64,000 bases of DNA, from contig OY969763.1 of NCBI GenBank assembly GCA_963702845.1, positions 1,280,001 through 1,344,000 on the forward strand, written 5' to 3'. The DNA comes from an uncultured Verrucomicrobiae bacterium (GTDB lineage: Bacteria; Verrucomicrobiota; Verrucomicrobiia; Limisphaerales; Palsa-1400). Shown piece by piece: positions 13,826 through 54,895 of this stretch. How positions within the stretch are numbered: position 1 is the stretch's first letter; each line of letters starts with the position of its first letter. The position numbers were made by a program, and so were the translations under genes. The notes beneath the pieces are model-generated. The model had not been told where the DNA came from. It saw only the letters and a program-made list of their open reading frames with translations, and searched no databases.

Positions 13826-14023
13826 CTATCCCTTGGGTTTCCGTGAAGTTCCCCAGATCAGCCAGCCGGCCAGTGCCACGAGCAGGATCAGCCACCAAAA
13901 AACGCGCAGCTCGCGCGCCGCTAATTCGACAAATTCCTGGGCGGCCGGAAATGCGATGATTAGAACCGCAATGACCACGAGCAGGATAATCAACTGGATC
14001 AGTGCGCGAAGCCCGGGATTCAT
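13826..14023 (-). CDS. Small 2-TM protein in SPFH operon
   Basis: 65 aa, two TMs, ATGA coupling to upstream SPFH gene. Confidence 0.7.
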   Translation of the reverse strand: MNPGLRALIQLIILLVVIAVLIIAFPAAQEFVELAARELRVFWWLILLVALAGWLIWGTSRKPKG

Positions 14024-14841
14024 TGGCTCGTGGATTTTTCTCCGGATTCAAGCGGCAGGAGCAGGCCAGCGTTGCCGCCACTCACCACCGCGGGCACAAC
14101 AAGCGGCGATTTGCCGTTCCAACGTTCCACGATCTGCAATCGCAGGAAAGCCGGGTTCAGCTTCAACGCTTCGCCGCGCACTTTGAGAGCTTCCGCTTCG
14201 CCTTTCGCCTTGATGACTGCCGTCTCGGCTTCGACCTGCGCCTGGACCTGAAAAAAGCGCGCTTGTGCCGCTTGTTGCTCGGCGACCATCTTCGCTTCGA
14301 TCGCGCGCTCGAGTTCCTTTGATAAATCAATATTTCGAATCACGATATCGTCCACGTCGAGCTTCGACCCGATTTTAGCCTTCGCTGCCGCCAACGCTTT
14401 TTCTTTAATCTCTTCGCGTTGCTTGACGATTTGCTCCGCCGTCTTCATGGCAGACACTTCTTTGATCGCCTCCTGGACGCGTGGCGCAATCAAGCTATCG
14501 AACGGATCGCCGGCAAACTGCTTATAAATTTGAACGACCGAATCCTCCGGAACGCGATAGAGAATTCGCAAGTCCATTATGACCTGTTGCATATCGGAGG
14601 AGAAGCAATCCGCCCGCAACGATTGCGTGCGTTGGCGCACGTTCATCGGAACGATCGATGTAATAAAAGGAGCCTTATAGCCAAATCCGCTCGGCAGGAA
14701 ACGATCCTCCGCTTTCCCAAGCGTTACTTTGATGCCGCGCGTTCCGGGTTCCACGACATACGTCATCGACGAGACGGTGATGATCGCAACGAATACGAGC
14801 ACTCCGGCCCCGATGACTTTCAGCAGCGAGAACTGGTTCAT
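14020..14841 (-). CDS. Prohibitin/SPFH-family protein
   Basis: TM, V.PG.RG..VTLG, LERAIEAKMVAEQ, AKGEAEA, ERWNG..P. Confidence 0.9.
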   Translation of the reverse strand: MNQFSLLKVIGAGVLVFVAIITVSSMTYVVEPGTRGIKVTLGKAEDRFLPSGFGYKAPFITSIVPMNVRQRTQSLRADCFSSDMQQVIMDLRILYRVPEDSVVQIYKQFAGDPFDSLIAPRVQEAIKEVSAMKTAEQIVKQREEIKEKALAAAKAKIGSKLDVDDIVIRNIDLSKELERAIEAKMVAEQQAAQARFFQVQAQVEAETAVIKAKGEAEALKVRGEALKLNPAFLRLQIVERWNGKSPLVVPAVVSGGNAGLLLPLESGEKSTSQ

Positions 14842-14842
14842 A

Positions 14843-15706
14843 TTATTGGCGCCGGCGTTGTGGGGCGGGCGCTGGGTGTTGGGTGCTGTCGGCATTGTTT
14901 TGCTGCGGGCGTAAACGTTCCAGGTCTTGCAGTGGTAACATGGTTCGGTCCCCGCCGCCGATGACCAGCGGAATCAGGCCGTCCCACTTCTCCACGATTT
15001 TCAAATCAAGCACCACCGGATTTTCTTTCAATGCCTGGCCGCGAATGCGAATGGATTCAGCTTCGCCTTTGGCTTTGATGACCGAAGTATCGGCATCGAT
15101 CTGCGTTCGCTGTTGAATATACTTCGATTTGGAAGCCTCTTGTTCCTGCACCATTTTCGCCTCAATCGCGCTTTCGAGTTCCTTCGTTAACGTGATGTTT
15201 TGGATCACGATGTCATCGACCACCAGCAGCGCTCCGACCTTTTTTCGCGCGATGTCGAGGGATCGTGTTTTGATTTGCTCACGGTTTTTGACGATTTGTT
15301 CCGCGCTTTGTAATGCGACCACCTCTTTCAAAGCTTCCTGTACGCGCGGCGCGACAAGGCTGTCGAACGGGTCGCCGTAATATTCCTGGAACAATTTCAC
15401 CACCGTGTTTTCCGGAACCCGAAACAGCACACGAAGCTCAACCTGAATTTGCTGCAAATCAGAAGAATAACATTCCGCTTTGTCCTCTGCCGTTTGTTGG
15501 CGGATTGAAACAGGGTAAATCGTGGTGATGAACGGCGACTTCATCCCGAAACCCTCTGCTTTAAAAGTTGGCGAAACTTTACCCATCGTCACCTCCACTC
15601 CGCGGTACCCTGGCGGGACAACGTATGTCCCGGCTGCTGCCATAATGATGACGATAAAAATGAGAATCGCCACACCGATTAATCGCGCGATTGTGCGTCC
15701 GGTCAT
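14843..15706 (-). CDS. Prohibitin/SPFH-family protein (paralog)
   Basis: Same motifs: VPPGYRGV, AIEAKMVQEQ, AKGEAES, EKWDG..P. Confidence 0.9.
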   Translation of the reverse strand: MTGRTIARLIGVAILIFIVIIMAAAGTYVVPPGYRGVEVTMGKVSPTFKAEGFGMKSPFITTIYPVSIRQQTAEDKAECYSSDLQQIQVELRVLFRVPENTVVKLFQEYYGDPFDSLVAPRVQEALKEVVALQSAEQIVKNREQIKTRSLDIARKKVGALLVVDDIVIQNITLTKELESAIEAKMVQEQEASKSKYIQQRTQIDADTSVIKAKGEAESIRIRGQALKENPVVLDLKIVEKWDGLIPLVIGGGDRTMLPLQDLERLRPQQNNADSTQHPAPAPQRRRQ

Positions 15707-15849
15707 GTCTTGTGAGCGCAGTCTATTTTGGCCCACCGACGAAACAAGCACTATTTAACGGGTGCGAGATCGGCAGACGTGTTTCCTCAAATTTCTTGAA
15801 TCCCGCATCCGTCGCGTCATTATTCGCGAAATCAACCAACCATCGGGCT

Positions 15850-17740: not shown

Positions 17741-17778
17741 GCGTGGCGCGAAGGGGAAACCGGATGGGTTAAACTTCA
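17741..17778. repeat. 38-bp dispersed repeat, copy 1
   Basis: gcgtggcgcgaaggggaaaccggatgggttaaacttca; 36/38 identical to 49328-49365. Confidence 0.85.
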
Positions 17779-17813
17779 GGATGCAAAGCTTCGTTATCTT
17801 TGGTTCGGTTCGT

Positions 17814-18113: not shown

Positions 18114-18123
18114 TTTTTTTAAA

Positions 18124-18159
18124 CGAACAGCGGGTTGTATATCACCAACCCGCCGTTCG
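18124..18159. repeat. 36-bp palindrome, copy 1
   Basis: cgaacagcgggttg-tatatcac-caacccgccgttcg; 35/36 identical to 49781-49816. Confidence 0.85.
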
Positions 18160-18170
18160 TCGAAATGTTA

Positions 18171-18791
18171 TTACGGTTTGCAACTGACCACGACTTCGTT
18201 GCTGAAGTTGCCGACGACTTCATTGCCGGTCATGAATTTGGCGCGGTATTCGCGCAACTCGGCTTTGCCGACGGCGAGCATGGGCCGGTCGTCGAGGTAA
18301 GGAAAATGCAGGACGACGGTCAAACGCGTGAAGTCCGGTTCATCGCCGCGTTTGCAATAGATGCAGATCGCCTCGCTGACGCCGAGCGTGGCGCGCAGTT
18401 CGACGATGCCGCCGCCTTTATCGACGGCGCTCAATACCGGCGCGGATGTGTTCAGGTCCTCGGTAATTTCCGGGCCGACGATGCCGAGAGCGTCGGCGAT
18501 GGCCGGTGTCAAACCGCTGGAGGCGCGGGCTTTTTTGGCGGCGAGCCGGGCGTGGGTTTCCGCGCCGAGACGACTCATCGTTTTGGCGTCGGCGGCGGCT
18601 TTGGCGGCTGCTTTGGCCGCGACGTTGGCGGGGAACTTGATGTGAAGATCGGTGTTATCAGCCGTAATCGCGGCAGTGTCACCGGGAACTAACCCAAGAG
18701 TGGCCGCATTGGCCAACAGCTGGGTCTTAAAGTTGTCATGCCAGGCCAGGAAGGCGTCGTCTGAATGGGGAATGAATCCGTCTCGTTGCAT
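18171..18791 (-). CDS. Hypothetical protein, helical N-terminus plus FnIII/Ig-like C-terminus
   Basis: FIP.SD..FLAW..NF..L.....LGL; Ala/Lys helix; C-terminal PYLD.RP..EYRA....GNFSNEV. Confidence 0.75.
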   Translation of the reverse strand: MQRDGFIPHSDDAFLAWHDNFKTQLLANAATLGLVPGDTAAITADNTDLHIKFPANVAAKAAAKAAADAKTMSRLGAETHARLAAKKARASSGLTPAIADALGIVGPEITEDLNTSAPVLSAVDKGGGIVELRATLGVSEAICIYCKRGDEPDFTRLTVVLHFPYLDDRPMLAVGKAELREYRAKFMTGNEVVGNFSNEVVVSCKP

Positions 18792-18856
18792 ATGTTTCTT
18801 GTTTCTAAGGGTTTATACCATTGTTTAGGGCTAGTTTTTGGAGACGTAGAAGGTTT

Positions 18857-19053
18857 GTCCAGAGCCGCTGGCGTGTTGTCCAGCGCCGCTGGACAGTTGG
18901 CTGGAGCCGCTGGACAGTTGTCCAGAACGGCTGGATTGCTGGCCAGAACCGCTGGCTCCTTGTCCAGAACCGCTGGACAATTGGCCAGAGCCGTCAGCCA
19001 CTTGGCCAGCGCCTTTGGACAGTTGGCCAGAACAGCTGGCCACTTGGCTGGAG
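18857..19053. repeat. 21-nt tandem array A (9 units plus partial)
   Basis: Consensus ~ g(t/g)ccagagccgctggacagtt with internal GTCCAG/CTGGAC palindrome. Confidence 0.95.
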
Positions 19054-19214: not shown

Positions 19215-19294
19215 CCAAACCTGCGCGCCACCTTTAAAACCCTTGTTCGCGGATTGAAAGTATGCGAACTGTTGGCGCAGATTAGTTGTTAGCT
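19215..19294 (+). mobile_element. attI-like site 1
   Basis: ~80-bp repeat shared with 22739-22818, ends in GTTAGCT (GTTRRRY-like), ATG 7 nt later. Confidence 0.65.
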
Positions 19295-19301
19295 CGAACA
19301 G

Positions 19302-19763
19302 ATGACCGTCTTGCGCCAAATATTTGGGTTTGCTTCCGCCTGCTTCGTGGGCGTGCTTCTCCCAGTCGCTGCCGAGGTTTACGACGGAGTGTACCGGCAT
19401 TCACATGGTTCTCCAGCTCCATGGCCGAGCAGCCTCTTCCCCAAGGTTCAATTCGTTGCTCTAGGCAGCGCATTGGTCGGTCTGCTTGTCGGAGTTATTG
19501 GTGTCGGCCTGTTGCATTGGGCGCACCGCGTCAGACTAAAAGACTACGTGATTGCAGGGTTGGTTTTGGGAGCAGGGAGTGGAGCGTCTTTCACAGCGAT
19601 TTCCCGCATCCCGACTGACCCTGCTGTGTCTTGGGTCGTATTCATCGTGCTGCCGTCGCTCTCGATGGCCATTGGTTTTACCTGCTATTGGTGTATTTGT
19701 ATTCGTGGTGCAGCTAACAAGCTCACTGGAGCGAATGCGGGCGAAACTCCCGAGCTTAGTTGA
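19302..19763 (+). CDS. Cassette-like 4-TM membrane protein
   Basis: Bounded by GTTAGCT (19288) and complementary AGCTAAC (19712); reads into attC remnant. Confidence 0.7.
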   Translation: MTVLRQIFGFASACFVGVLLPVAAEVYDGVYRHSHGSPAPWPSSLFPKVQFVALGSALVGLLVGVIGVGLLHWAHRVRLKDYVIAGLVLGAGSGASFTAISRIPTDPAVSWVVFIVLPSLSMAIGFTCYWCICIRGAANKLTGANAGETPELS

Positions 19764-19906
19764 TAAACAACGCCTCATTCGTCGCTGTTCACGCGGGGAC
19801 TGCGGCGGCAACGAAGGCGTTCTCGGTGGATGCGGGTTTCGGCACCACCACCGTCTTCATGACCTCCATCGCGGCGAGTTTGCGCCACCATTCTTCGGCC
19901 TGCTCG
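19744..19906 (-). pseudogene. Displaced 3' end of unknown gene, copy 1
   Basis: Minus strand reads EQAEEWWRKLAAMEVMKTVVVPKPASTENAFVAAAVPA*; similar to 22655-22738 and 23452-23599. Confidence 0.65.
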
Positions 19907-19957
19907 AAACAAACAGGGCGCGGTGCGCGGGGTCAAGAAGGCAGAATACCGGCAAGC

Positions 19958-21574
19958 TCAAGGGTAGGGCTCGCCATGAACGGTTCGCGGCGCGGGTTGG
20001 AATGCCGCAGAGAAAATGTCATGGCGAGGATCGTAATAATCACCGGCGATGCCCATTAATCCGAGCAGCGTGTGGTCAAGTCGATCGGTTTGGTAAGGCC
20101 GGTTACGCAACTTGGAGTCGGTCTCAGGTTGGGTGCGGAAGGTCGAAGAGCGCCAGAAAATCATGGGGATTTCAAACTGCTCCCGCGCCCGTACGTTAAT
20201 ACCTGCAAAATTGTTGTGGTGGGCGACGTCCTGGCCGTGGTCGGAAACGAAGAGCCAGGCCACGGGTTGCGAGGACGCGCGGCAGAGAGCCAGCGAACGT
20301 TTCAGAACATGGTCCATGTAAAGTATGGCGTTGTCGTAGTAGTTGCGCTGGCTAATGGCCCAAAACGCGCGGCCTTCGGCTTTCAACTGCGTGGTGACGG
20401 CGTCGTCGGCGTTATTGAACCGCGCGAAGGATTTGGGGTAGCGGTAGAAATAGGCCGGATGGGCGTTGAGCAGGTGCACGATTATCAGTTTGCGGGGGCC
20501 GGGGTCGCGCAAGGCCTCCTCCAAAGCCGGAAGCACCGCTTCGTCATAGGACCCTGCGCCGCGCGAGGAGCCGCGATTTGCCATAACGGTTTTGTCGGCG
20601 TGTGAGGCGAAGACGGCAACCAATCCGTTTGCGTCGGTGCTATGATTGCTGATCCAGAAACTTTTGTAGCCGGCCTTTCTCGCCATCAGGAGCACGTCGG
20701 GCTTTTTCAGCCACAGGTCCGGGTGGGAGAGGTCCGCCGGGGTCAGGATATTTCTAAGCGCAGGGATGGTGGACGAATCGCAACTGACCACATCGGAAAA
20801 CCAGGTCAACTCATCGCCCATCGCATTCAGTTCGGGCGTGGTTTCCCGTTGGTAGCCGAAGCTGGGCAGGTTCAGCCGGGTGACACTTTCGCCGATGACA
20901 AAGACAAGCGTGCGAGGGGACGAGTCGGCGCAGTGCAAGGAATCGAGCTGCGGATCGGCAGCTGCAGTGGCCATCTTGGATTGCAGCGCGCGCGTCGCTT
21001 CGACGTCCCGCGCCCATTCCCGGTAGCGAATCGGAAAGAAGAGCGCCGGGTTATGGTTGCGAATGGACGAATTTAGATGAAACAGGAGGAACAGAATGGG
21101 GAAGGCCACGGCTGGTTTCCATGCGGCGCGCCGGACGTCGGCGGTCCGTGCCTGCGCCACGCCAACCCGCCTGCGCATTATCAGGGCGAATAGTGCCGCG
21201 AACACGGCCACGAGACCCGCGTGCTTGAGGAGAGCCAACATGTGGTGTTGGAGAAACTCAACCGCCTCCGCGCGGTCGGTGCTGAACATGGCTCCTACAA
21301 CAAAGTCTTCGTCAGGCCCAACGCCCAGGAATTCGCCCACGAAAGCGTGGAAACCGAGGAGCAGCAGGAATGGAATTGCTATAGCGAGGACGCAGGCTGT
21401 TCCGACTTTGGTTTCGTCGCCATGACGCGTGGTCCAGGCAGACACCGCCAGCACCGCGAGAGCGCCCAGCACCGCGATTTCGCTCGCCAGTTCCAAATTG
21501 ATCCAGCCCAGCATCAAATAGACAGCCGGGATCGTGATGAATGCTAGCGCTCTTGTTAACAGTATCATGCCCAT
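19958..21574 (-). CDS. Phosphoethanolamine transferase (EptC/CptA-like)
   Basis: TMs, T...EA.EF, VFVIGES, GY.RETTPEL, STIPAL, AGYK.FWISN, YDNAILYMD, SDHG. Confidence 0.9.
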   Translation of the reverse strand: MGMILLTRALAFITIPAVYLMLGWINLELASEIAVLGALAVLAVSAWTTRHGDETKVGTACVLAIAIPFLLLLGFHAFVGEFLGVGPDEDFVVGAMFSTDRAEAVEFLQHHMLALLKHAGLVAVFAALFALIMRRRVGVAQARTADVRRAAWKPAVAFPILFLLFHLNSSIRNHNPALFFPIRYREWARDVEATRALQSKMATAAADPQLDSLHCADSSPRTLVFVIGESVTRLNLPSFGYQRETTPELNAMGDELTWFSDVVSCDSSTIPALRNILTPADLSHPDLWLKKPDVLLMARKAGYKSFWISNHSTDANGLVAVFASHADKTVMANRGSSRGAGSYDEAVLPALEEALRDPGPRKLIIVHLLNAHPAYFYRYPKSFARFNNADDAVTTQLKAEGRAFWAISQRNYYDNAILYMDHVLKRSLALCRASSQPVAWLFVSDHGQDVAHHNNFAGINVRAREQFEIPMIFWRSSTFRTQPETDSKLRNRPYQTDRLDHTLLGLMGIAGDYYDPRHDIFSAAFQPAPRTVHGEPYP

Positions 21575-21712
21575 ACCCGCAAAGCCGCCTCGGAATGCAG
21601 CAATACTCGGGAGTTCCGGATTGCTGTGCCTTCTTCTTGCACGGAACATTGCCCGACGTCAACTATAGAAAATGTGCTGGTTCCGCTTTCGGAACTAGCT
21701 AAAGTCCCGTTT

Positions 21713-22633
21713 GTGAAGAATCCCTTACGCAAAAAGACCGTAAGAGTCGGGGCGATTTGCCTGGCGTCCATTTTGGTGGCTTATCTGATTCTTGGTTTTA
21801 CCGGCGGAGGATGGAGCCCTCGGTTGGACGATACGTTTCAATGGGACGGCGATTCGATGCTGCTTTTCGCCCACCGGGGGCTGGGTCGAAGCGTCCCGGA
21901 GAACAGCTTGGCGGCTTTCGCGGAAGCCCGGCAGCTTGGGTTCAAGGCGGTGGAGCTCGATATCCGAAAAACGAAAGACGGCCAACTGGCGATACTTCAC
22001 GACCCAACCCCTAAGCGGACGCTGGGCTTGGACGTCCGGTTCGGCGATTTAACCCTGGCGGAAATCAAACAGCGCAGAATGCTTTTCAAAGGGCAGGAAA
22101 CAACCAATTACATTCCGACCCTTCGGGAGGTGTTTGAAGCGGAAGGTAAGAATCTCCGGTTCTATCTTGATATGAAAGAGAAGAAGTTCCGCGACGCGGA
22201 CCAAATCGCGAGCCTCATCCAGGAGTTTGACCTTTATGACCGGACGATTCTTGCTTCGGTAGATCCGCTGTTTGTGGTGTACGTCGAGCATAAGTATCCA
22301 AGGATCAACACCACCCTTGAAAGGTTTGATACCGCCCAGTCATGGCTTTACCGACTGATCCCGAAAAGATGGAAACCTGATTATCTCTCCGGAGATGCCT
22401 CCAAGGCGGACTGCCAGCAGCACTGGCTGAAGGAAAACAATTTGCTGTCCAAACGAATCGTCTACTCGGTTGATCGGACGACTTACCAGCTGACGCTGAA
22501 CTCCGGCATCAGAAAGGCGATCGTAGATAACGATTTCAGCCTTTACTCAGACTCGCTGTCAAAACAGGTGCCGAGCTACCCGCATGAGACGGCTGTCTCA
22601 ACCGAACGGCTGAGTGAACCGCACTCGCAGTGA
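21713..22633 (+). CDS. Glycerophosphodiester phosphodiesterase
   Basis: FAHRG....PENSLAAF..A...G...VELDIRKTKDG....LHD, IPTL.EV, LDMK. Confidence 0.9.
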   Translation: MKNPLRKKTVRVGAICLASILVAYLILGFTGGGWSPRLDDTFQWDGDSMLLFAHRGLGRSVPENSLAAFAEARQLGFKAVELDIRKTKDGQLAILHDPTPKRTLGLDVRFGDLTLAEIKQRRMLFKGQETTNYIPTLREVFEAEGKNLRFYLDMKEKKFRDADQIASLIQEFDLYDRTILASVDPLFVVYVEHKYPRINTTLERFDTAQSWLYRLIPKRWKPDYLSGDASKADCQQHWLKENNLLSKRIVYSVDRTTYQLTLNSGIRKAIVDNDFSLYSDSLSKQVPSYPHETAVSTERLSEPHSQ

Positions 22634-22654
22634 GACATCTGTCAGATAATCATT

Positions 22655-22738
22655 GTTCACGTGGGGATTTCGGCGGCGATGGGTTTTCCGGTGGATGCGG
22701 GTTTCGGCACAACCCCGGTTTTGGCGACCTCCATCGCG
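22655..22738 (-). pseudogene. Displaced 3' end of unknown gene, copy 2 (shorter)
   Basis: gttcacgtgggga..cggcggc..ggtggatgcgggtttcggcac..gacctccatcgcg, abutting attI-like site 2. Confidence 0.6.
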
Positions 22739-22818
22739 CCAAACCTGCGCGCCACCTTTAAAACCCTTGTTCGCGGATTAAAAGTATGGGAACTGTTGTC
22801 CCAGATTAATTGTTAGGC
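22739..22818 (+). mobile_element. attI-like site 2
   Basis: Near-identical to 19215-19294, ends in GTTAGGC. Confidence 0.65.
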
Positions 22819-22828
22819 GCATGTCGAC

Positions 22829-23431
22829 ATGTCACTTCTAAAACCACTTACTGATTTGCAGCAGGGAAATCGATGCCTTTTTGCCAAGGATTATGAAAGG
22901 GCAGTCGAGTATTTCTTGCGCCATGCCCAAGCGCATCCGCAGGAGCGCGCCACAGCTTACGTGCAGGTCGCGGAATGCTGTCGCCGTTCAAACATCATCC
23001 CTCAACCTCAGCCCATCGCCCCGGGAGTCACGCTGGCATCGGCGAGTGATCGGCCTTCAGCAGAGTATTACTACCGTTTGGCACTTCAGAGCGAACCAGA
23101 CCACTTTGGCGCGTTGGGGGGACTAGCCGAGGTTTTGCCGGAGGCCGCTGATGAGCGCTTGTCGATTCTAGAGCGGGCCGCGGCTCTCCAGCCCAGTTGT
23201 TTGATCTTGGTCGCTCTCGGCGATTTCTATCGAAGCCATCGCAAGGATTTCTCTCGAGCGTACGAGAGCTATCGCCGCGCACAGGAGCAGAGTCCCAGAG
23301 ACGAAACCGCCTATCGTCGCCTGAATGACATGTGCCGGCGTCTCGGCAGGCCTGACGAAGCAACGGAGTGGAGCGAGCGATGGAGAGAGGCGAAAGCGAC
23401 GAAAAAGCGAGTGGACGGGAAAACAGCATGA
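22829..23431 (+). CDS. Cassette-like TPR protein
   Basis: TPR-like helices; flanked by GTTAGGCGCAT (22812) and exact complement ATGCGCCTAAC (23435). Confidence 0.8.
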   Translation: MSLLKPLTDLQQGNRCLFAKDYERAVEYFLRHAQAHPQERATAYVQVAECCRRSNIIPQPQPIAPGVTLASASDRPSAEYYYRLALQSEPDHFGALGGLAEVLPEAADERLSILERAAALQPSCLILVALGDFYRSHRKDFSRAYESYRRAQEQSPRDETAYRRLNDMCRRLGRPDEATEWSERWREAKATKKRVDGKTA

Positions 23432-23451
23432 CCGATGCGCCTAACAAATGA

Positions 23452-23715
23452 AAACTCCCGGCCTTAATTAATAAACAGCGCCGTTCACGCGGGGACTGCG
23501 GCGGCAATGGGGCTATCGGCTGACGCGGGTTTCGGCACCACCATCGTGTTCAATCACCTCCAGCGCGGCGACTTGCCCCACCATTCTTCCGCCTGCTCGT
23601 GGCCCCACTGGTTTGCGGCTGCGAAGCGTCTCAATGCCAACTCCAAACGGGTGCGCGCGCGGGGCGATCGGCCGGGTTCTTGGTCAGCGGGTCATGATTT
23701 CCGCAATGGATATTC
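23452..23715 (-). pseudogene. Displaced 3' end of unknown gene, copy 3 (longest, frameshifted)
   Basis: Minus strand reads ..LELALRRFAAANQWGHEQAEEWWGK../..VVPKPASADSPIAAAVPA*. Confidence 0.6.
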
Positions 23716-23741
23716 CGGTAAAGAGGGGATGGGCCCCGTTT

Positions 23742-24122
23742 TCACGATGCTTTGAGCTTCAGGGTAAAACGAACTGGTATGTGACCAACGCTTCCCACAA
23801 TCGCCACGTTGCCAGGAATGATCATATTCTGGGTCGTGTGAATCGGCGTACCGAGCGGAACCCCTGGTGACGAATTTGTATCGGTTACACTGAGGTCGCC
23901 TTCGATCACGACGGCGAACTTGCCATCCGCCAGCGGCGTTGCGGTCAGAATGCAGTCCTTGCCCTCAAGTTGCAGATGCGTTGGAGTGCTGGCGGTAACC
24001 TCCACTACGCCCCAGTCCGTGACCTGGATGGCGCCATCCTGATTTTTGACAGCGGAGGATTTATTGCAGCCGGCTAGCATTAAAATGCTGGCCGCAAATG
24101 CAGGGAGGACGAGCTTTTTCAT
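23742..24122 (-). CDS. Putative lipoprotein downstream of attI-like site 3
   Basis: MKKLVLPAFAASILMLAGC lipobox. Confidence 0.75.
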   Translation of the reverse strand: MKKLVLPAFAASILMLAGCNKSSAVKNQDGAIQVTDWGVVEVTASTPTHLQLEGKDCILTATPLADGKFAVVIEGDLSVTDTNSSPGVPLGTPIHTTQNMIIPGNVAIVGSVGHIPVRFTLKLKAS

Positions 24123-24161
24123 CGTGTTAATTGTGAACACCGCATTGTAAAACAAGTTTCG

Positions 24162-24220
24162 GTTCAACAATTAATGTGTGACAACTGTTCGCACATTTTT
24201 ATTACGCGAACAAGAGTTGC
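24162..24220 (-). mobile_element. attI-like site 3 (diverged, inverted)
   Basis: Minus strand gcaactcttgttcgcgtaataaaaatgtgcgaacagttgtcacacattaattGTTGAAC aligns without gaps to sites 1 and 2. Confidence 0.6.
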
Positions 24221-24241
24221 AACACTCCGAAGAACCGGCGC

Positions 24242-24625
24242 TCAGATCCAACGCTGTACCGACTCACCTATATCGCTCGGCAACTGATTGAAGCACAGTT
24301 TGGATTGAGGCGCGTGTTCATGCACCACGTTTACCAACTTCTCAAACAGCATAAAGTTGCTCGGAACCGTTCTAACACCTGCTCCAATAAGGACGCAATC
24401 GAACCGCTTCTGCTTGAGCTGGCTTTGAACCACGGCCTCAGCGGTTTCGCCAAAGTCGGTCATACACGTTTGCACACTGTAACCGAGACGAGTCAGTTCC
24501 TCTTCAGAGGACTTGACACCAGCCAGCACCTTGGCTGCGCTCATGCCCGGCGGATAGCCGGGTTTTGAGAAATCAATCAGTGCCGGGTCCAGGCCAACCA
24601 CGAGTACACTTTTCTTGTCTGTCAT
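24242..24625 (-). CDS. Conserved hypothetical small alpha/beta protein
   Basis: VLVVGLDP..FDCVLIGAGVR....LFEKLVN.VH..AP...CFN..P.D..E.V.RW. Confidence 0.8.
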   Translation of the reverse strand: MTDKKSVLVVGLDPALIDFSKPGYPPGMSAAKVLAGVKSSEEELTRLGYSVQTCMTDFGETAEAVVQSQLKQKRFDCVLIGAGVRTVPSNFMLFEKLVNVVHEHAPQSKLCFNQLPSDIGESVQRWI

Positions 24626-25195
24626 AGATATGTCCATGTAGTTATTGAGTGACGGATGCAGGGATGCGGCGAAGCTAGGCCGTGCCGGGAAGGGCGTCAA
24701 GCTATACCGCGAGGCACGGAGGTTCCGGTTGCGAGGTAATCTTATTACTACATAATTGACGAATGAGTAACTTCATGCCACGCTGCTGCCATGAAACTAA
24801 AGCGTTTCGATAGCAAATCCGAGCAGCCACGTCCCACTCTCACCCAGCGGAACACCGAAACGCTTGTACCCATTCGGCTTTCGAACGCTCGCACCACCCA
24901 ATATCTGCGAAATGGCTTTTCCCTTCCCGCAAACCTCAATAAAAAGTCGGCAAAAGTCACCTGCTGCCACCTACGGTCACCTACTGTCACCCAAAAAAAA
25001 TGTTTTATAAACACCACAGAAACTCAGTTTTTTCCACGCCCGCTTGCGTTTCGTTCACTTTTACACGTCGTTTTTACCCCCGTTTTTCGCGCATTTTCGC
25101 GCACGCTCGGCGCTGTCACGTGTTCAGAACTCATTTTCCCGCTTGGCTTTCGGCAAAAGGTGGTCTCATATCGTCCTACGTACAACCAAAACGCT

Positions 25196-49327: not shown

Positions 49328-49365
49328 GCGTGGCGCAAAGGTGAAACCGGATGGGTTAAACTTCA
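49328..49365. repeat. 38-bp dispersed repeat, copy 2 (promoter-like on minus strand)
   Basis: 36/38 identical to 17741-17778; minus strand TTGAAG-17-CACCTT just upstream of the GH gene. Confidence 0.8.
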
Positions 49366-49471
49366 AGAAGCTTTGATTAACAATTCCGGAATCACTGATT
49401 TGAATTGGTCGAGGCGGAACCTTCTACTGTTACCTTCCACGAAACCGCGACTGGAGGGCGCGTAGTCTGTA

Positions 49472-49780: not shown

Positions 49781-49816
49781 CGAACAGCGGGTTGTATATC
49801 ACCAACCCGCCATTCG
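49781..49816. repeat. 36-bp palindrome, copy 2
   Basis: cgaacagcgggttgtatatcaccaacccgccattcg. Confidence 0.85.
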
Positions 49817-49827
49817 CCGCAATGTAA

Positions 49828-49920
49828 TCAAGGGACCATCTTGGTGGCCGGTTCACTCCAGGGGTCGGCGCCGCCGATTGCGCCGACGCGGAACCAGAGT
49901 TTGGATAATATTTTTGACAT
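49828..49920 (-). pseudogene. Internally deleted FnIII-type gene remnant (30 aa)
   Basis: MSKILSKLWFRVGAIGGADPWSEPATKMVP*; start context aagaaacatATG as at 18791; WFRV.A..WS.P resembles an FnIII C-terminus. Confidence 0.65.
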
Positions 49921-49985
49921 ATGTTTCTTATTTATAGCCATTTATACAATCGTTTCGTTCTGGTTTTCGGAGGTTTTGAGGGTTT

Positions 49986-50174
49986 GTCCAGCGCCGCTGG
50001 ACAAGTGTCCAGAGCTTCTGGCTACTTGGCTGGAGCCGCTGGACGGTTGTCCAGGACGGCTGGCTTCTTGTCCAGAACGGCTGGACAATTGGCCAGAGCC
50101 GCCAGCCACTTGTCCAGCGCCTCTGGACTGTTGGCCAATGCCGCCAGACAGTTGTCCAGAACGGTCGGCTAACG
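49986..50174. repeat. 21-nt tandem array B (9 units)
   Basis: Same consensus as array A with largely collinear unit variants. Confidence 0.95.
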
Positions 50175-54187: not shown

Positions 54188-54420
54188 TTATATATGAACC
54201 GCAGGCGTGCTTGAATAACACGCGCGCATTGGGTATTGGCCGACAATGCGTTGATTGAAAATCGTGGTCAAACTTATATTTTTCTGCGGCTGGCAATTTT
54301 TCCGGGCGCGAGCCGCAACGTTCGTTGGAGCATTCCTCAGGGGGCCATCTTGTGTATGTTGCGTATTTATAGACGTTTATGCAGTGTTTTTAGGCTGGTT
54401 ATCGGCGGGTTAGGAGGCTT

Positions 54421-54756
54421 GTACAGCGCCGTCGTACACGTGTACAGCGGCGCTGTGCACTTGAACGGAGCCGCTGTGCACTTGAACGGAGCCGCTGTGC
54501 ACTTGAACGGAGCCGCTGTGCACTTGAACGGAGCCGCTGTACACTTGCACGGAGCCGCTGTACACTTGCACGGAGCCGCTGTACACTTGCACGGAGCCGC
54601 TGTACACTTGCACGGAGCCGCTGTACACTTGCACGACGGGACGGTAAAGTGGTACGGAGCCGCCGTCCAAATGGACGCCGCCGCTGTACGGGTGGACGGA
54701 GCGGCTGTACGGGTGGACGAAGGCGCGGTACACTTGCACGGCGGGATTGTTCAATC
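54421..54756. repeat. 21-nt tandem array C (16 units)
   Basis: g(a/c)acggagccgctgt(g/a)cactt; 8 near-identical central units. Confidence 0.95.
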
Positions 54757-54895
54757 GAGCGGACCTCGCGTAAGTGGGGTCACGCGGGGAAAATGGTTTT
54801 ATGAGCCCATAAAACGATAAAATGGGTCAATAAAATCGTTTTATGAGGTGGTGGGGAAATTGATGGAGGTGGCTGGAATCTAGCTATTTGCCGGT

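Follow-up and report, generated by a model that had tools for sequence, protein, structure and literature searches.

A textbook integron has one attI recombination site, located beside the integrase gene intI. The present analysis concerns a stretch of 64,000 nucleotides (the window) from the genome of an uncultured Verrucomicrobiae bacterium of the order Limisphaerales (contig OY969763.1, positions 1,280,001 to 1,344,000), where three attI-like repeats, each with one gene behind it, were noticed in a preliminary description of the sequence. These repeats belong to about 75 predicted attI copies on a chromosome in which no intI was found. The favoured reading, to which a probability of roughly 0.6 was assigned, is that attI was multiplied as cargo and loaded by an integrase (IntI) that has since been lost, the copies now being a frozen record of past capture.

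The closest described structures are the 'unusual' cassettes of class 1 and class 2 integrons, which carry a truncated attI (PMC12901181, citing Partridge et al. 2009). In these, as here, attI stands in place of attC, giving attI-gene-attI units, and the cassettes behind sites 1 and 2 of the window, which are cut back to the inverse core, correspond to type i of that paper. However, the known cases are, as presented there, mostly short attI pieces in the arrays of mobile integrons, whereas here whole attI sites with host-gene scraps, sometimes gene-less, are distributed over 32 chromosomal clusters. The class 1 integrase IntI1 excises attI1-gene-attI1 and handles cassettes with truncated attI, the excision and insertion of attI-type cassettes being shown in that source for class 1 constructs alone (PMC12901181). 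Clusters of attC sites lacking integrases (CALINs) and single attC sites lacking integrases (SALINs) resemble the window in having cassette-derived genes with no integrase nearby (PMC4889954; 10.1101/2022.09.11.507474), but they are defined by attC in these sources, while the repeat of the window is attI and complete attC is absent from it. Insertion at attG is similar in that the GWT-like points at which arrays terminate are located at the ends of host genes, and differs in that the mobile partner is attC, not attI, and that attI1 did not enter the genome in the experiments described (10.1101/2022.09.11.507474). IntegronFinder, as described in PMC4889954, matches attI exactly and for classes 1 to 3 only, and would therefore miss these sites. 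No precedent for dozens of dispersed attI copies was found in the literature searched, mostly main texts available without subscription, and the supplementary tables of unusual cassettes could hold closer ones.

The repeats are located as first described, at 19236-19294 (+, site 1), 22760-22818 (+, site 2) and 24162-24220 (-, site 3), with ungapped identities among them of 50/57, 42/57 and 45/57, although the extent quoted for them was too short, as the likeness of sites 1 and 2 continues about 25 nt further to the left (from 19213 and 22737). Each contains three GTT triplets at offsets common to all three sites and ends in an R box with the G/TT crossover (the slash marks the crossover point) at the end of the similarity. 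GTT is present in every site; sites 2 and 3 also have the full GTTRRRY core, from which site 1 departs by a C in sixth place. The alignment of the sites further shows two modules of direct repeats and, 4 nt ahead of the core, an inverted 7-mer.

The genes behind the three sites look cassette-derived. For site 1 this is suggested by a 7/7 complement of the entry core (AGCTAAC at 19712-19718) together with a left attC arm, for site 2 by an 11/11 complement (ATGCGCCTAAC at 23435-23445), and for site 3, which has no inverse core (best complement 4), by the context of a homolog of its gene in a relative (G076, 42%), found behind an attC in a cassette-array locus with four attC hits. Of 1500 GTTRRRY sites drawn at random and searched 100-700 nt downstream, 5.6% showed a complement of at least 7 and 1 showed one of 11. 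The left-arm score of site 1 (19.6 bits) is reached at 32 positions in the genome and at 17 in the reversed genome; a short alternative attC at 19712-19765 was ruled out by its weak fold (-7.3 kcal/mol) and lack of a proper L box. None of the three genes has a complete attC according to a sequence hidden Markov model (HMM), and none of its 50 genome hits falls in the window, which thus contains neither a CALIN (at least two complete attC sites without intI) nor a SALIN (one). The cassette loading claimed in the preliminary description holds up, with inverse cores at sites 1 and 2 and other copies in the genome also preceding attC and inverse cores, as does the stated difference from CALINs.

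The genome consists of a single contig of 6,027,559 bases (6.03 Mb), rated 89.8% complete. An HMM of sites 1-3 found 40 copies at E<1e-3, whereas the reversed genome gave one hit at E 2.1, and an HMM of these 40 copies gave 46 matches at E<0.01. The count of copies proposed as a check was thus made: about 75 attI copies, 45 of type I, to which sites 1-3 belong, and 30 of type II, lie in 32 clusters around the chromosome (76 are counted by a joint model that includes sites of relatives). Scoring was confined to the sites that could be anchored, 43 of type I and 26 of type II, with 6 dropped. The attC HMM, built from 14 sites of this genome and not equivalent to the covariance model of IntegronFinder, had no hits in the reversed genome. 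The two subfamilies differ in preservation: GTT was kept in 25/43 type I copies (lost in 18/43) and in 24/26 of type II, an attC hit lies within 1.6 kb behind 5/43 and 15/26 copies, respectively (20/69 in total; 0.5% of random positions), and an inverse core of at least 7 follows 9/43 and 16/26, in a span up to twice that searched for the null. The subfamily present in the window is, by these type I counts, the more eroded one, and type II copies are, judged by their GTT and attC, young. Two further lines were examined and set aside. Strand bias was not used as evidence, since the majority orientation with respect to GC skew, found for 56/75 sites, holds for only 21/32 clusters, and the origin is uncertain. 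A folded site was not accepted from hairpin covariation: of the double changes, 6/7 were compensatory (permutation p 0.009, 35/43 rows), yet the number was still 5 in a slid control, and pairing is disrupted by 74 single changes.

The absence of intI, reported earlier for the 64 kb, extends to the entire contig. The best match to the TIGR02249 profile reached 85.9 bits against a cut-off of 265, and tblastn with IntI of the family found just two recombinases, of 308 and 328 aa, with 28-36% identity. No intI fragment was detected within 2.5 kb of the 75 attI sites by protein and DNA profiles, the latter of which catches 16/16 whole or partial intI genes in the loci of relatives. A tblastn hint of intI near genome position 4,979,511 (E 4.6-7) was not confirmed by the profiles. 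No complete integron, with intI beside attI or elsewhere in the genome, is present, no IntI of the matching clade was found in the viral contigs searched, and phage records gave no match to the region of site 2. An integrase must have been present in the past or have come as a visitor.

The identification of the repeat as attI relies on relatives. In 250 genomes of the order, the 30 IntI loci with the best scores lacked a related site (best 6.5 bits), but one occurs in a lower-scoring IntI clade, above the cut-off in 4/30 family genomes. IntI proteins of this clade (L055-L072) are 316-321 aa long and come from Limisphaerales or Verrucomicrobia records; the three tested pass the TIGR02249 cut-off. 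Twelve intI loci, found via the IntI protein, were compared (a 13th, weak locus was omitted). An HMM made from the copies of this genome alone matched 8/12 of them directly upstream of intI on the opposite strand, with E <0.01 just at L067 (1.2e-4, the best) and L069 (0.005). In an independent test in the opposite direction, an HMM of the 12 intI-adjacent sites was run against the 6 Mb, and the top 8 hits of 77 were copies of this genome (7 distinct). The long attI of L067 and L069 aligns co-linearly with sites 1-3, whose similarity to the L067-type attI was significant against 2000 shuffles (p 0.0005, 0.0005 and 0.0025). The repeat is thus homologous to a site at the 5' end of intI in divergent orientation, so that the earlier term 'attI-like' was well chosen, and sites 1-3 are, on the strength of this homology, each a full-length attI copy. 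With this kinship, and with attC and inverse cores behind other copies, the refutation proposed in the preliminary description did not come about. Sites 1-3 share with L067 and L069 a layout of two modules and a terminal GTTRRRY core, and the attC family is the same, the attC HMM of this genome finding 19 attC sites in the 12 intI loci. They differ in number and setting: in the clade, attI lies 46-79 bp from the intI start, with 1-7 copies detected per genome, whereas here there are about 75, without intI or a stub of it. In L055, intI (1495-2445) stands beside a gene matching PF23343 (replication-associated protein ORF2/G2P) and small open reading frames (ORFs); L056 has such neighbours too, the match having been tested for L055. 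This suggests that the integron of L055 and L056 may be carried by a small mobile element.

Copies without intI are also found in these relatives. The joint model, which was trained in part on this genome and on the relatives searched with it, matched 21/30 family genomes with 1-7 copies each (53 matches). Among the 28/53 loci examined, intI is whole at 3 and present at 13 as a 5' fragment that abuts the site (up to about 117 codons), and 12 gave no tblastn hit; the loci with 5' fragments are among L098-L123. As 13/28 attI sites abut such a fragment, truncation of intI seems recurrent in the family. At the three same-genus loci examined, the sites are type I-like and intI is lacking. Across the order, 12/140 genomes had a match (only 36 candidates scored per genome); among the 16 loci, intI lies within 1.5 kb at 1 and a stub at 3, the other 12 having neither at that distance. 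In one metagenome contig (L074), a type I site with a kinase scrap separates two genes that are direct neighbours in this genome. An exact-pattern search found no copies in 60 relatives and a species-representative collection, and matched one metagenome contig; no empty site orthologous to 19600-24300 was found in 30 relatives. These counts indicate that attI without intI is common in the lineage, this genome being extreme among those searched.

Within the window, the sites do not fit the 'solo' platforms of the preliminary description. All three form one 5-kb cluster, in which pieces of the 3' end of a host Ser/Thr kinase gene are interspersed in reversed orientation, and site 2 forms a nested insertion at the core of a further attI, itself a remnant (Table 1). 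This fourth, truncated attI at about 22635-22657, as well as the host-gene scraps between the units, had been overlooked. Its score of 19.6 bits is reached by 31 genome sites, the other 30 being attI-like, and by 1 in the reversed genome, although it is weak (5.2 bits) against the full-length model. Its G22655/TT opens a 157-nt unit consisting of kinase scrap 2 and attI 2 (22656-22812), and the joint between the two recurs at genome 4,285,062 and 4,318,645, and partly at 4,319,031. Both this unit and the attI remnant behind the glycerophosphodiester phosphodiesterase (GDPD) gene show the features of an attI-type unusual cassette, namely a G/TT start and an attI end instead of attC. Since the unit begins at G/TT of the truncated attI, site 2 probably came as a gene-less attI-type cassette. 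The pair of scraps at 23452..23735 likewise begins with G/TT on the plus strand.

Table 1. Predicted features of the attI cluster and its left border, in window coordinates
Feature	Position	Strand	Remarks
Palindromic hairpin resembling the attI left module	18120..18166		13 blastn matches including itself; weak matches to attI model (11.8 and 5.6 bits)
206-aa gene, no Pfam family, weak fn3-like lead	18171..18791	-	divergent from site 1
21-bp tandem repeats behind the 206-aa gene	18854-19042		
attI copy 1, type I	19229..19294	+	crossover G19288/TT
Cassette gene 1, 153-aa hydrophobic ORF, no family	19302..19763	+	ORF runs through broken attC
attC left arm (inverse core, spacer, L''-like box)	19712..19735	+	right arm missing; 19.6 bits
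Scrap resembling PSD1/DUF1553 gene 3' end	19744..19786	-	8 identical residues with intact gene ending near genome 2,294,069
Kinase scrap 1 (3' end of host Ser/Thr kinase gene)	19787..19906	-	98% over 118 nt; plus-strand start is G/TT
CptA/EptA-like phosphoethanolamine transferase, 563 aa	19958..21649	-	under all NCBIfam cut-offs; passenger between units
GDPD gene	21626..22633	+	stop abuts truncated attI
Truncated type II attI, 3' end only	22635..22657	+	crossover G22655/TT; entry point of unit of kinase scrap and attI 2
Kinase scrap 2	22656..22738	-	79% over 85 nt; joined to attI 2 left flank
attI copy 2, type I	22753..22818	+	crossover G22812/TT
Cassette gene 2, 200-aa tetratricopeptide repeat (TPR) protein	22829..23431	+	elsewhere just a 32-residue match
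Bare inverse core of site 2, 11/11	23435..23445	+	remaining attC absent
Short PSD1-like scrap	23452-23482	-	
Kinase scrap 3	23483-23735	-	85-91%, frameshifted; head-on to gene 3
Gene 3, 126-aa probable lipoprotein	23742..24122	-	
attI copy 3, type I	24162..24228	-	crossover G24168/TT; faces sites 1 and 2

The scraps can be traced to intact host genes. The kinase gene is intact at genome 2,343,933-2,346,104, where attI and one gene face its end; this parent locus and site 1 have both flanks in common (138 nt at 93% and 118 nt at 98%) and enclose different genes. An intact phosphoketolase gene at 2.199 Mb is faced by attI and a cassette, and type II follows the same design; 7 of the 17 phosphoketolase scraps listed, including the intact parent, begin with the GTT core and the linker of the parent. 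The three intact donor genes (phosphoketolase, PSD1 and kinase), each facing attI, lie within 150 kb (2,198,000-2,347,000), near a GC-skew switch at about 2.21 Mb. In the genome as a whole, the left flanks of attI are host-gene ends and other repeats, which are common within families of copies. One gene with the same flanking units is present at both 179 kb and 4.31 Mb.

A possible course of events under the favoured reading, multiplication of attI as cargo, is as follows. An attI with its cassette would have been placed head-on at a host gene's 3' end, an arrangement still visible at the kinase, phosphoketolase and PSD1 genes (genome 2.20-2.35 Mb). Tandem duplication, or a circle, might then have fused the end of the host gene to the left flank of attI, and IntI might have shifted the fused piece between G/TT points as a gene-less attI-type cassette, while the repeats could have doubled as homology arms for block copying, as suggested by the gene shared with its flanking units between 179 kb and 4.31 Mb. 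Ordinary cassettes would have been loaded by IntI at the new sites, after which intI would have been lost and attC eroded, so that the three genes of the window would now be fixed.

Several observations weigh against this reading. IntI1 gave no recombination of attI1 into genome sites in the experiments described (10.1101/2022.09.11.507474), so that jumps of attI to new loci would need another route. Both full copies of the unit of kinase scrap and attI elsewhere in the genome carry T, not G, before TT, and the filled and empty junctions that were compared show microhomology instead of clean G/TT crossovers. The HMM made from relatives only also scores the window weakly, placing site 2 at rank 38, site 3 at rank 49 and site 1 outside the best 70 of 77 hits, a gap bridged by the direct alignment with the attI of L067 and L069. 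A more dynamic but less probable version is that attI is a portable unit: gene-less attI cassettes would turn host gene ends throughout the chromosome into capture sites, some of them driving expression, and the network would be reloaded at times by IntI on a mobile element.

Other explanations must be considered. GTT is kept in all three sites of the window, which could mean that they are working solo platforms, as in the preliminary description, served at present in trans by the integrase of a plasmid, a phage or an unassembled replicon. The preservation of GTT and attC in the young type II copies is consistent with such service, as are four relatives (G048, G064, G080 and G164) with intI plus an attI whose locus has no intI hit, and the gene matching PF23343 beside the intI of L055 hints at a mobile carrier. 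It is nevertheless unlikely, given that the single contig contains neither intI nor a stub, that complete attC is absent from the window and that, of 43 type I copies, only 25 have kept GTT and 5 precede an attC hit. Alternatively, type I copies might be retained as promoters or operators of the gene behind, their recombination role having lapsed, which would be compatible with the favoured reading. An ORF of at least 60 aa starts within 60 nt behind 40/43 type I copies, compared with 37% of random positions, and departures from the consensus amount to 36/490 in the palindrome arms and 21/105 in the GTT core (Fisher p 0.0003; 35 indel-free rows of 43). However, a gene close behind the core is also the outcome of cassette insertion, the contrast between arms and core is inflated because the copies were found via their long upstream part and are kin by descent, and no sigma-70-like site was found on any of sites 1-3, which leaves this explanation quite improbable. 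A reading of the motif as a LexA box was not adopted either; no study dealing with such a box in the phylum was found in the literature searched.

The whole and truncated intI genes in the family loci (3 and 13 of the 28 examined among 53 matches) might indicate that each copy is the remnant of a separately gained integron, from which intI was deleted as in the relatives. For this genome such an origin is largely refuted and very improbable: an intI fragment is absent within 2.5 kb of all 75 sites, while the DNA model catches all 16 in relatives, and the left flanks are host-gene ends and repeats shared in families. Finally, the palindromic form of the motif, its dispersal and the position of several copies beside other repeats would suit a miniature inverted-repeat transposable element or a repetitive extragenic palindrome with no kinship to integrons. 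The chance of this is very slight indeed, as the motif is homologous to intI-adjacent sites, its similarity ends at G/TT, attC is enriched downstream, and a model of intI-adjacent sites alone recovers it, which refutes the proposal.

The neighbourhood of the cluster contains further repeats and genes. The hairpin at 18120-18166 is repeated at 49781-49823 and looks like the left module of attI duplicated in inverted orientation; hairpins of this type overlap full attI copies at genome 1,826,918, 2,638,510 and 3,189,865. Homologs of the 206-aa gene have attI 441-654 nt away in divergent orientation at 5/7 loci (window 18171-19042; genome 2,197,670, 2,347,159, 1,356,361 and 5,448,528), and this gene with its 21-bp repeats may be a carrier or a co-copied block. 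Tandem arrays related to that at 18854-19042 are present at 54355-54774 and 49897-50169, and a 44-nt repeat (91%) occurs at 17741-17784 and 49328-49371 as well as near attI at genome 4,288,541. No relatives of cassette gene 1 were found in the search made for them, and the GDPD gene has no close relative at E<=1e-30 in 300 genomes of the order. The CptA/EptA-like transferase is a distant relative of the MCR family, far under the MCR cut-offs. A gene at 24242-24700 (-), with no Pfam or NCBIfam match, is encoded on the strand of site 3, stops some 15 nt short of the left boundary of that site and could form another gene-plus-attI unit with it. At 14020-15751 (-), two membrane-protein ORFs of similar appearance (291 and 302 aa) lie in tandem and may resemble SPFH/prohibitin proteins.

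About 75 attI sites without intI on one chromosome indicate that the platform site itself can multiply, and the window provides a clear nested case, with attI inserted at attI. Such multiplication would give CALINs and isolated cassettes an origin additional to attC x attG insertion, and implies that tools based on attC and IntI undercount integron-derived DNA. The young and the eroded subfamilies form a series in which the requirements of attI and its possible role as a promoter could be probed. If attI is indeed a portable unit, the genome of this bacterium would contain a distributed integron without a fixed platform.

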